Source: a virus
Virus genome (UHGV): UHGV-0180032
Length of the DNA stretch: 64,000 bases
Direction: 5' to 3' (one strand)
Positions 63,001-64,000 of this stretch are shown here, piece by piece. How positions within the stretch are numbered: the stretch's first letter is position 1; every line of letters begins with the position of its first letter. Made by a program: the position numbers.

Positions 63001-64000
63001 GCAAGATGGTGACGTACCGAATCAGGGGAAGAGATGTGAAGTGGATGATTGAACGTTGTCGTATATGCAAGATGTAGATCGTTCTTCATTGATTACTCCA
63101 ATTAATTCACGGTCAAACGGACGTTCAGGGTATAGAACCCACCCCGCCATTGTCTGCCGGTAACTTGAAACTCAGCAGTAAACCCATTCGATTTACTCGA
63201 TTGTTGTGTAATAGCCGTGCTACCACCGGAGGGTTTATTTACCTTCCCCCCGCTCCTTTACTACAGCTACCACTGCACGCCCAGCTACAACTACCGTTAC
63301 AGTTATAGTGAGTTAACGGTAATCCCGCCAGGTTATTCGTTGAGGACACCGTACCTTGGTTAGCGATGTAGTTATTCGCGTCTGTGGTTTTAATGTAACC
63401 TTCAACCTGACCGACTCTGTCTCGAATATTTTTGAGGGAAATCACTTCTCACCTCCTATCGTCCTGTACACGACGAGCAGCCACCCGTACAGCTACTGGA
63501 GCACGATGCTGTACAGCCGCCCGTACAAGTGCCCGAACACGCATTAGCGCACCCACCCGAACAACTCCCCGAACATCCTGAACAACTACTGGAACACCCT
63601 GACGTGCAGTTTGCAGAGCATGAAGAACCACAACCACCAGACGCGTTCCCTGTACAACCACCAGAGCAACTCGAGCAGGTAAAGGAACACGTGCCCGCAC
63701 AATCATAATGCGCACGATTCCGACCACCGAACAGGTCCGCGTTATTCGTGGCCTTATTGCGGATGTAGTTCTGTACACCTGTGGTGTTTTTCAGCGCGAT
63801 ACTATCGACGTTATTAAGACGTCTTACTAATTCAGCTAATCCGACTGCCATTTCTTCCCCCTATCGTCCAGAGCATCCGCCGGAGCAAGCACCCGAACAG
63901 TTATGCGAACAACGCCCAGTACAACTTCCGGTACAGGTACTTGTACAACTGCTAGAACAGGCCCCCGAGCAACCGGAGCATCCTGAACAGTTGCCCCCAC

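Follow-up and report, generated by a model that had tools for sequence, protein, structure and literature searches.

The window analysed here, a stretch of 64,000 nucleotides from the virus genome UHGV-0180032, derives from a SPN3US-like (Seoulvirus-type) jumbo phage with ∼75% DNA identity to SPN3US, and carries at its end an operon in which three small cysteine-rich proteins, which we call P1, P2 and P3, are encoded together with two radical S-adenosylmethionine (SAM) enzymes. From sequence comparisons we propose, with a probability of about one half, that P1–P3 are stand-alone copies of a tail-fibre end module that is crosslinked by radical SAM chemistry. In a wider form of this proposal, to which we give somewhat less than an even chance, phages of at least four architectures (P2-like, GpJ-type, T7-like and phiKZ-like jumbo) would crosslink Cys-repeat rods at their fibre tips with radical SAM enzymes of the type that mature peptides synthesized by the ribosome and modified after translation (RiPPs), and the SPN3US-like phages would supply the rod as three small proteins that have so far been missed.

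P1, P2 and P3 are conserved tandem paralogues

P1, P2 and P3 are tandem paralogues on the minus strand, in the gene order P3-P2-P1. Their features in the window are as follows (aa, amino acids).

63239..63445, minus strand: P1, GTG start, 68 aa, 4 Cys, 20-aa core; match to PHROG 6085 at 1.9e-25
63446..63455, minus strand: ribosome-binding spacer GAGGTGAGAA, from the P2 stop to the P1 GTG, read directly
63456..63851, minus strand: P2, ATG start, 131 aa, 20 Cys, 81-aa core; match to PHROG 6085 at 1.6e-42
63852..63860, minus strand: ribosome-binding spacer GGGGAAGAA, from the P3 stop to the P2 ATG, read directly
63861..64000, minus strand: P3, C-terminal 45 codons and stop, the N-terminus lying past the window end; match to PHROG 6085 at 1.6e-36

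The final 45 codons of P3 in the window read GGNCSGCSGCSGACSSSC...CSGGCSGR and are followed by the stop codon at 63861–63863; the full protein, taken from an IMG/VR contig identical to the window (L003, 3022–3414), has 130 aa and 21 Cys. All three proteins consist of an N-terminal part of ∼49 residues and a core that begins at the first Cys. In P2, residues 1–50 comprise a helical N-terminal part and a junction motif, NNADLFGG....HYDC, and residues 51–131 form a core of CXXX repeats. The N-terminal part and junction motif of P1 are as in P2 and are followed by a short core with 4 Cys, while P3 has in common with its paralogues an N-terminal MAIS.K..R.RL..VE stretch and the C.G.CSW.CS motif at the entry to the core.

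A preliminary description of this DNA had reported paralogues with a common N-terminal part and Cys-repeat cores of very unequal length, and translation of the minus strand bears this out. The K-x-T, NYI-x-N and HY[ND]C-x-G-[ST]-CS-[WF]-x-CS elements that it listed are found in P1 and P2, all three proteins end in GR, and the packing of stop codon, Shine–Dalgarno sequence and start codon can be read at both gene junctions (CGA TAG GAGGTGAGAA GTG and CGA TAG GGGGAAGAA ATG). The sizes given for the cores were right for the Cys numbers (4 versus 20) and for the ∼20-residue core of P1, whereas the P2 core has 81 residues and not ∼85.

Cys makes up 25% of the core residues, arranged in CxxxC and CxxC units, and successive Cys are spaced by 4 in 16 of the 20 steps in P3, 15 of 19 in P2 and all three in P1; the spacing at all other steps is 3, except for one step of 8 in P2. 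Between the Cys the cores contain, much as the preliminary description had it, almost exclusively Ser, Gly, Thr, Ala and Asn. Asp and Glu are absent from all three cores, and Lys and Arg do not occur internally, with a few near the ends. Tandem repeats in the DNA were considered as an origin of the Cys periodicity and rejected, since Tandem Repeats Finder detected a single weak 21-nucleotide repeat of 2.4 copies; the periodicity is therefore a property of the proteins.

The P3-P2-P1 trio occurs in the same order in each of the 14 related jumbo-phage loci retrieved, whose large radical SAM enzymes are 59–100% identical to that of the window. Cys numbers hardly change among these loci: P3 always has 21, P2 has 20 (23 in the most distant clade) and P1 has 4 (2 in that clade). 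Between the window and its relatives, non-synonymous differences per site amount to 0.05–0.44, against synonymous values of 0.2–0.99 that are mostly near saturation (0.5–0.99), and the excess of synonymous change is alike in the N-terminal part and in the core. P1–P3 are thus real genes, and selection acts on them in the Cys frame. The contrast between a conserved leader and a hypervariable core that had been expected across related genomes is not what these loci show, as both parts are under similar purifying selection and the Cys counts are near-invariant. Fixed Cys counts together with purifying selection on the core fit a structural element. In the most divergent jumbo-phage clade (L013–L015, ∼3959–4204), P1 retains the first two Cys only (...AYNCGGTCSWSSSGGAK...), so that the conserved minimum of P1 appears to be the junction motif and not the repeat.

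These genes have escaped annotation. In SPN3US (NC_027402, L001) P1–P3 lie at 8015–8221, 8237–8641 and 8652–9044 on the minus strand, where the record places gp100/gp166 at 8233–8568 in another frame over P2 and omits P1 and P3; the gp166 frame was rejected as wrong on the pattern of conservation and of non-synonymous versus synonymous differences. In Erwinia phage pEa_SNUABM_29 (L002) open reading frames (ORFs) of the opposite strand, 8221–8493(+) and 8728–8940(+), are annotated over P2 and P3, and across 55 phage records in GenBank and RefSeq the region is either labelled hypothetical or left empty.

The adjacent radical SAM enzymes belong to peptide-modifying families

Downstream of P1, on the same strand, lie an accessory gene and the two radical SAM genes.

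62202..63089, minus strand: accessory protein, 295 aa, no Cys; match to PHROG 8030 (function unknown) at 1.1e-138
61264..62181, minus strand: small radical SAM enzyme, 305 aa; match to Pfam Radical_SAM at 1.2e-14
59940..61274, minus strand: large radical SAM enzyme, 444 aa, with a SPASM-like C-terminal Cys set; match to TIGR04115 at 2e-36

Profile and motif comparisons place the enzymes in peptide-modifying radical SAM/SPASM families. The large enzyme carries its radical SAM motif as CNLDCEYC at residues 21–28 and has further Cys at C286, C296, C340-x2-C-x5-C-x2-C352 and C377; among 15 homologues C21, C25, C28, C286, C296, C340, C343, C349, C352 and C377 are invariant or nearly so. It thus combines the CX3CX2C motif with seven C-terminal Cys, as expected of a radical SAM/SPASM enzyme with two auxiliary clusters. 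In it the run CX2CX5CX2C stands in place of the canonical CX2CX5CX3C; the Pfam SPASM model does not match it. The small enzyme has CNLDCSFC at residues 28–35 and more Cys at positions 233, 245, 248, 274 and 279, and its NCBIfam matches are generic only, including HxsC at 1.5e-12.

The top NCBIfam match of the large enzyme is TIGR04115, the "radical SAM peptide maturase, CXXX-repeat target family" (2e-36, 126.2 bits), followed by the PapB ranthipeptide maturase NF047865 at 6.5e-32, with HxsB at 7e-21. The families nearest to the enzymes (TIGR04115, PapB, geopeptide, HxsB and SCIFF) are RiPP maturases, and on this evidence the window enzyme is a divergent sister lineage of the TIGR04115 maturases. 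When the profile of its homologues was compared with the Protein Data Bank (PDB), 5WGG, which we take to be the thioether-forming SCIFF maturase CteB, was the best match at 1.1e-36, and an anaerobic sulfatase maturase (anSME) came next at 2e-19. In the 5WGG chain the aligned region begins with residue 104, presumably after the N-terminal recognition domain of CteB, and the radical SAM motif of the phage enzyme starts at residue 21; the large phage enzyme therefore appears to be without this domain.

The small and large enzymes probably work together, since in T7-like contigs (P0101, 668 aa, and L187 8330–10336) the two form a single polypeptide. One sub-clade of the jumbo phages encodes an additional small-radical-SAM paralogue of 303 aa between P3 and P2 (L006 2563–3474, and the same place in L016), giving an operon with three radical SAM genes.

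The preliminary description saw in P1–P3 the most likely substrates of these enzymes, and two observations support this assignment. TIGR04114, the NCBIfam repeat model for radical SAM Cxxx targets, scores 17.6 bits in P2, 19.5 in P3 and 25.6 in the orthologue P0169, against a cut-off of 20, and the best family of the large enzyme is the matching maturase model. Moreover, of the 67 viral loci at which the large enzyme has a full-length homologue, 61 also contain a co-directional CXXX-repeat ORF, compared with 5 of the 88 where the radical SAM match is generic and N-terminal. The scan of genome collections used CX3CX2C as its sole pattern and returned mostly generic radical SAM matches, 10 of 80 loci being full-length relatives. 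It is on this pairing that the Cys repeats are proposed as the substrate. At the distant phage locus L116 the pairing recurs, with an enzyme at 293.6 bits (TIGR04115 cut-off 350) and a target at 43.5 bits (TIGR04114 cut-off 20), and distant loci such as this one follow baseplate-wedge and fibre-like genes. A few kilobases downstream of the Cys-rich/radical SAM pair of L116, a gut-type phage, lies a reverse transcriptase (10604–11881; PHROG 1423, 1e-61), which may represent a diversity-generating retroelement near the fibre genes.

The same module ends the tail fibres of other phages

Homology places the junction and Cys repeat at the C-terminus of predicted tail fibres in P2-like, GpJ-type and T7-like phages. 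Apart from the jumbo phages, the closest relatives of the large enzyme (31–38% identity over ∼90% of the length) are found in prophages and phages, always at a tail-fibre position and not in bacterial natural-product clusters, and they directly follow proteins that end in the same junction and CXXX repeat (L025, L026, L109, L111 and L112). PHROG tail-fibre families match these loci at 1e-20 to 1e-55 in L026, L109 and L111, and weakly only in L025 and L112.

The Campylobacter P2-like prophage L026 carries, in this order, genes for baseplate J and tail protein I, a tail fibre of 384 aa, a protein of 250 aa and a pair of radical SAM enzymes, with sheath and tube genes further downstream, and the fibre (4070–5224; Pfam Phage_tail_fib 1.8e-40) has the C-terminus ...ITMGCNGCSGSCSGSCSSGCTACSGCSGSCSGK... 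The Deferribacter prophage L025 encodes, after a GpJ-type tail protein, a 302-aa protein with tail-fibre repeats (3490–4398) whose C-terminus, ...ATNADQLGGQAGSYYRCSDCSWTCSSSCTGSC..., has 29 Cys, and this is succeeded by a 250-aa protein, a small radical SAM enzyme and a large one. The T7-like loci L187 and L189 contain, in this order, internal core proteins, a Phage_T7_tail anchor, a collagen-like segment, a Cys-rich protein of 206–213 aa, the accessory protein and one or more radical SAM genes, with the terminase coming after the radical SAM gene in L187. Two further tail-fibre-like proteins of 494 and 559 aa (P0211 and P0225) end in ...NADSLNGKPQSYYDCNGTCSWTCMATC... and ...LGGQPADFYSCGGTCAWSC...

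The accessory protein and both radical SAM enzymes are likewise homologous between the window and the prophages. The small enzyme is homologous to L025 5205–5996, and the accessory protein resembles the 250-aa protein found downstream of the Cys-tailed fibres (BLASTP 6e-12 to L025 4411–5163), which itself matches phrog_8030 at 1.9e-11. The AlphaFold2 (AF2) model of the accessory protein is confident, with a predicted local distance difference test (pLDDT) value of 86, and Foldseek searches against the PDB and BFVD returned no neighbour of this fold except its own orthologue.

The homology is not confined to the Cys repeat. PHROG 6085, the family matched by P1–P3, aligns to residues 169–263 of the L025 protein (from profile position 17), to 270–357 in L112 and to 356–444 in L111, and the alignment to the fibre C-termini begins within the so-called leader. 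Likeness to P1–P3 covers the 20–30 residues ahead of the first Cys, as in the comparison of KATNNADLFGGRNRAHYDCAGTCSFTCSS of P2 with the Deferribacter fibre; it is the C-terminal module of the fibres alone that is shared. A search of 1.84 billion representative proteins with a profile built from the jumbo-phage family gave 153 matches, many at the C-terminus of proteins of 200–560 aa. Among the 45 matches that contain the junction, 41 match PHROG 6085, and the annotated PHROG families that co-match junction-containing proteins are all tail, tail-fibre or collagen-like minor tail families.

The same search returned giant proteins of ∼1460–1800 aa (P0191, P0192, P0193 and others) with up to 13 matched stretches; in P0192 (1610 aa) roughly 600 C-terminal residues consist of CXXX repeat. 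Short, apparently bacterial CXXX-repeat peptides (P0187 and P0190) carry a twin-arginine (TAT) signal (RREFFK...) and match TIGR04117, from which a secreted, non-phage branch of the CXXX family seems to exist. For some homologues a precomputed table gives the Pfam family PF27846.

A proposed crosslinked module of the baseplate or fibre

In the jumbo phage the Cys-rich operon is located in the tail/baseplate module, immediately after the homologues of SPN3US gp167 and gp168. The former is a non-head virion protein of SPN3US, and gp168–170 are a family of paralogues related to phiKZ gp131 and candidates for baseplate or tail-fibre proteins (PMC5105663, PMC5694885), designated paralogue family C (PMC5694885). 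The three Cys-rich paralogues thus adjoin three baseplate/fibre candidate paralogues (gp168–gp170), and a one-to-one pairing is conceivable.

In our proposal the module has three elements, namely a short stretch of helix resembling a coiled coil, the junction motif K-A-x-N-[AN]-x-D/N-x-[LF]-x-G-x4-[HY]-Y-x-C-x-G-x-C-S-[WF]-x-C-S and a CXXX-repeat rod. The Cys repeats would be modified post-translationally by both radical SAM enzymes in the reducing cytoplasm, with the large enzyme bringing a SPASM-type auxiliary-cluster domain, the small enzyme acting as its partner and the accessory protein perhaps holding the substrate. By analogy with the nearest characterised enzymes thioether formation is likely, and the most probable chemistry would be many short intrachain, possibly also interchain, crosslinks from Cys sulphur to carbon. 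The product would be a covalently stapled, disulfide-independent segment of the baseplate/fibre apparatus encoded just upstream (the SPN3US gp167–gp170 homologues), and P1–P3 of the jumbo phages would accordingly be expected in the virion.

Several observations weigh against this proposal. The virion proteome of SPN3US includes gp167–173 and none of gp161–166, and gives no direct placement of P1–P3 in virions. The proteome is, however, silent on these proteins, which were not in the database: the annotation of gp166 follows a wrong frame, and none exists for P1 and P3; the absence of gp161–166 also fits a non-structural role of the enzymes and accessory protein. The jumbo-phage proteins are very small and have no recognisable anchor domain, and it is difficult to envisage a fibre made by P1, which has 4 Cys. 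For the core of the P2 monomer AF2 modelling gave no confident fold: the helix at residues 5–34 has pLDDT values of ∼50–65, the core lies below 50 and the mean is 44. In a sample of ten distant loci the gene just upstream of the Cys protein encodes a recognisable tail fibre in four cases and a head-decoration-like protein in one, and is unannotated in five. The large enzyme falls far under the trusted cut-offs of every named family (for TIGR04115, 126 versus 350 bits). Finally, PapB depends on an acceptor carboxylate that follows the Cys and is provided by Asp, Glu or the C-terminus (PMC12373016), whereas the cores of P1–P3 contain no acidic residue and do not fit the Cys-X3-Asp/Glu pattern, so that PapB chemistry is not directly transferable.

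Alternative explanations

P1–P3 could instead be classical RiPP precursors, in which a leader of ∼49 residues would be removed and the radical SAM-crosslinked core released at lysis as a diffusible product, whether antibacterial, signal, metal binder or anti-defence. The small size of the proteins and their layout of leader and core invite such a reading, as do the tandem arrangement, which is typical of precursors in RiPP clusters, the RiPP maturases to which the enzymes are closest and the bacterial CXXX-repeat peptides with TAT export signals; that the proteins are unreported in the SPN3US virion proteome also agrees with it, although this is explained by the missing annotation. However, Pfam, NCBIfam and PHROG annotation detected no protease, exporter or immunity gene among the operon genes, and thus neither a peptidase nor an exporter for double-Gly processing. 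The possible double-Gly leader boundary seen in P2 by the preliminary description exists as the sequence ADLFGG, but as a cleavage site it was rejected: in orthologues and paralogues GG is replaced by AG, NG or SG (LFGG becoming FAG, LNG and FSG), and it forms part of NA.D.L.G, a motif of tail-fibre type that recurs within long tail fibres. Tail fibres contain, as an internal segment, a homologue of the supposed leader, the core is conserved as much as the leader and fixed in length, and the cluster lies within a block of tail-fibre genes and has relatives fused to fibres.

The preliminary description had regarded structural Cys-rich homologues unrelated to radical SAM modification as evidence against its interpretation. 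One half of this is indeed found, as the homologues of P1–P3 are tail-fibre C-termini, but they are still linked to the same radical SAM genes. Taken together, these comparisons make a leader-cleaved, released RiPP unlikely in our view and less likely than a modified virion appendage.

A role in assembly is a second possibility, and one that we rate as distinctly improbable. Here the Cys-repeat module, modified or not, would serve, much as C-terminal intramolecular chaperone domains do, as a trimerisation or folding chaperone for the neighbouring fibres and be discarded later; in the jumbo phage it would act in trans. Such domains sit at the C-termini of fibres, which is the site that the module occupies; small stand-alone forms of the module adjoin fibre genes, as does a DUF4376 protein with weak similarity to a tail protein in PHROG, and no products have been reported in virions. 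Against this, two dedicated radical SAM enzymes would be costly for a chaperone that is thrown away, neither a protease motif nor a domain for autocleavage was detected, and repeats of up to several hundred residues (L113 and P0192) look like building material.

It is also distinctly improbable that P1–P3 are metal-binding or disulfide-rich proteins which the radical SAM enzymes leave unmodified, the Cys coordinating metal or Fe-S clusters or forming disulfides after lysis and the enzymes acting on some other substrate. The Cys content of the cores and the CxxxC and CxxC units, which are classical metal-binding spacings, would suit such proteins, and metal ions stabilise some known fibre tips, as in the HxH repeats of T4 gp37. 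This explanation does not account for the co-directional occurrence of CXXX ORFs with this radical SAM lineage or for the NCBIfam models that pair them as target and maturase, and no other conserved candidate substrate accompanies the enzymes in the P2-like, T7-like, GpJ-type and jumbo phages.

Lastly, that the Cys-rich ORFs are an artefact of a GC-rich, repeat-like stretch whose real gene lies in another frame, or is lacking altogether, is hardly credible: overlapping ORFs of ∼110 aa do exist in other frames and on the opposite strand, some of them annotated in GenBank, but in the Cys frame alone are the starts, with their ribosome-binding sites, and the N-terminal part conserved, the Cys columns invariant and, across 14 genomes, non-synonymous differences much lower than synonymous ones, and it is this frame that matches PHROG 6085 and the fused tail-fibre C-termini.

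The remainder of the operon and its flanks

P1–P3 and the genes downstream of them are on one strand and separated by short gaps or overlapping. Beyond the large radical SAM gene the following features complete the operon.

59411..60001, minus strand: 196-aa protein, function unknown; PHROG 7988; same operon
58761..59435, minus strand: 224-aa DUF4376 protein, the final gene of the operon; Pfam DUF4376 at 1.5e-10, with a weak match to phrog_2837 'tail protein' at 5.4e-6
58729..58755, no strand assigned: hairpin with an 11-base-pair stem, TACCTACCTCC-gtaaa-GGAGGTAGGTA, with T-rich flanks, between convergent genes; L003 8520–8546

With the annotated start of the 196-aa protein, 62 nucleotides of its ORF (59940–60001) fall within the end of the large radical SAM gene; its true start may be further downstream, as the PHROG match begins at residue 9. 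The hairpin at 58729–58755 is likely to be the terminator of the operon. Between P1 and the accessory gene no RNA attenuator or terminator was detected, the fold z-score of −1.35 not being significant. Past the window end, a second hairpin with a 9-base-pair stem (AGGAGGAAC...GTTCCTCCT) and a T-run lies between the gp167 homologue and P3 (L003 2958–3000), and because of this hairpin and T-run upstream of P3 the Cys-rich operon may be a transcription unit apart from the fibre genes. The window ORFs at 55124–55714 (+) and 55822–56989 (+), upstream of the Cys-rich operon in the window and on the opposite strand, are the positional counterparts of SPN3US genes annotated in RefSeq as 'endolysin', 'tail assembly chaperone' and hypothetical protein.

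Relation to known systems and significance

The closest described system is that of the CXXX-repeat targets and their maturase (TIGR04114 repeat, TIGR04117 target protein and TIGR04115 maturase), which has been defined bioinformatically; we found no experimental characterisation of it in the full-text literature searched. P1–P3 resemble its targets in having a Cys at each fourth residue with small residues between, and the window resembles its loci in having an adjacent, co-directional radical SAM gene with a SPASM-type set of C-terminal Cys. Unlike that system, the window locus adds a small radical SAM enzyme as its second, an accessory protein of 295 aa with a new fold and the junction motif ...Y-x-C-x-G-x-CSW-x-CS, and the link of this branch to tail fibres is, as far as we found, not part of the family description.

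With the PapB/freyrasin system and with 5WGG the large enzyme shares the radical SAM and SPASM architecture, and the repeated Cys-X3 units on which PapB acts (PMC12373016) have their counterpart in the Cys-X3 units of P1–P3. The substrates differ in size, being proteins of 68–131 aa or whole tail fibres here and short secreted peptides there. The His-Xaa-Ser system (HxsA with HxsB/HxsC) offers a similar combination, in which a repeat substrate is accompanied by two radical SAM enzymes, a small one and one of SPASM type. Its repeat is HXS where that of the window is CXXX, and the scores are far under the cut-offs; we know of no link between the Hxs system and phages.

Compared with the distal domains of known fibres, such as the T4 gp37 tip and chaperone domains, the module has the same C-terminal position, a low-complexity periodic sequence that may form a thin rod and dedicated assembly genes downstream, and differs in that it also exists as a separate small protein. 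To our knowledge neither radical SAM modification nor covalent thioether stapling is known for any tail fibre, and in the full-text literature searched, with subscription journals outside its scope, no paper was found that describes such a system or in which phage tail fibres are connected with either radical SAM enzymes or CXXX repeats. There is thus a substantial chance that the operon represents a previously unrecognised mode of virion maturation.

If the proposal is correct, a viral structural protein would for the first time be seen to mature through radical SAM enzymes, and the result would provide a biological role for the orphan CXXX-repeat radical SAM family, which is catalogued only as hidden Markov models. 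SPN3US is a genetic model for giant phages, and P1–P3 are unannotated or annotated in the wrong frame there and in ∼55 relatives in GenBank; as a consequence they are missing from proteomic and structural inventories of the baseplate and fibres. Since disulfides cannot form in the reducing cytoplasm where fibres assemble, enzymatic crosslinks would be useful to the phage and would allow a covalently stapled fibre element that is resistant to proteases and to redox conditions. RiPP enzymology would thereby be joined to virion assembly, and the enzymes could supply catalysts for multi-site peptide stapling.

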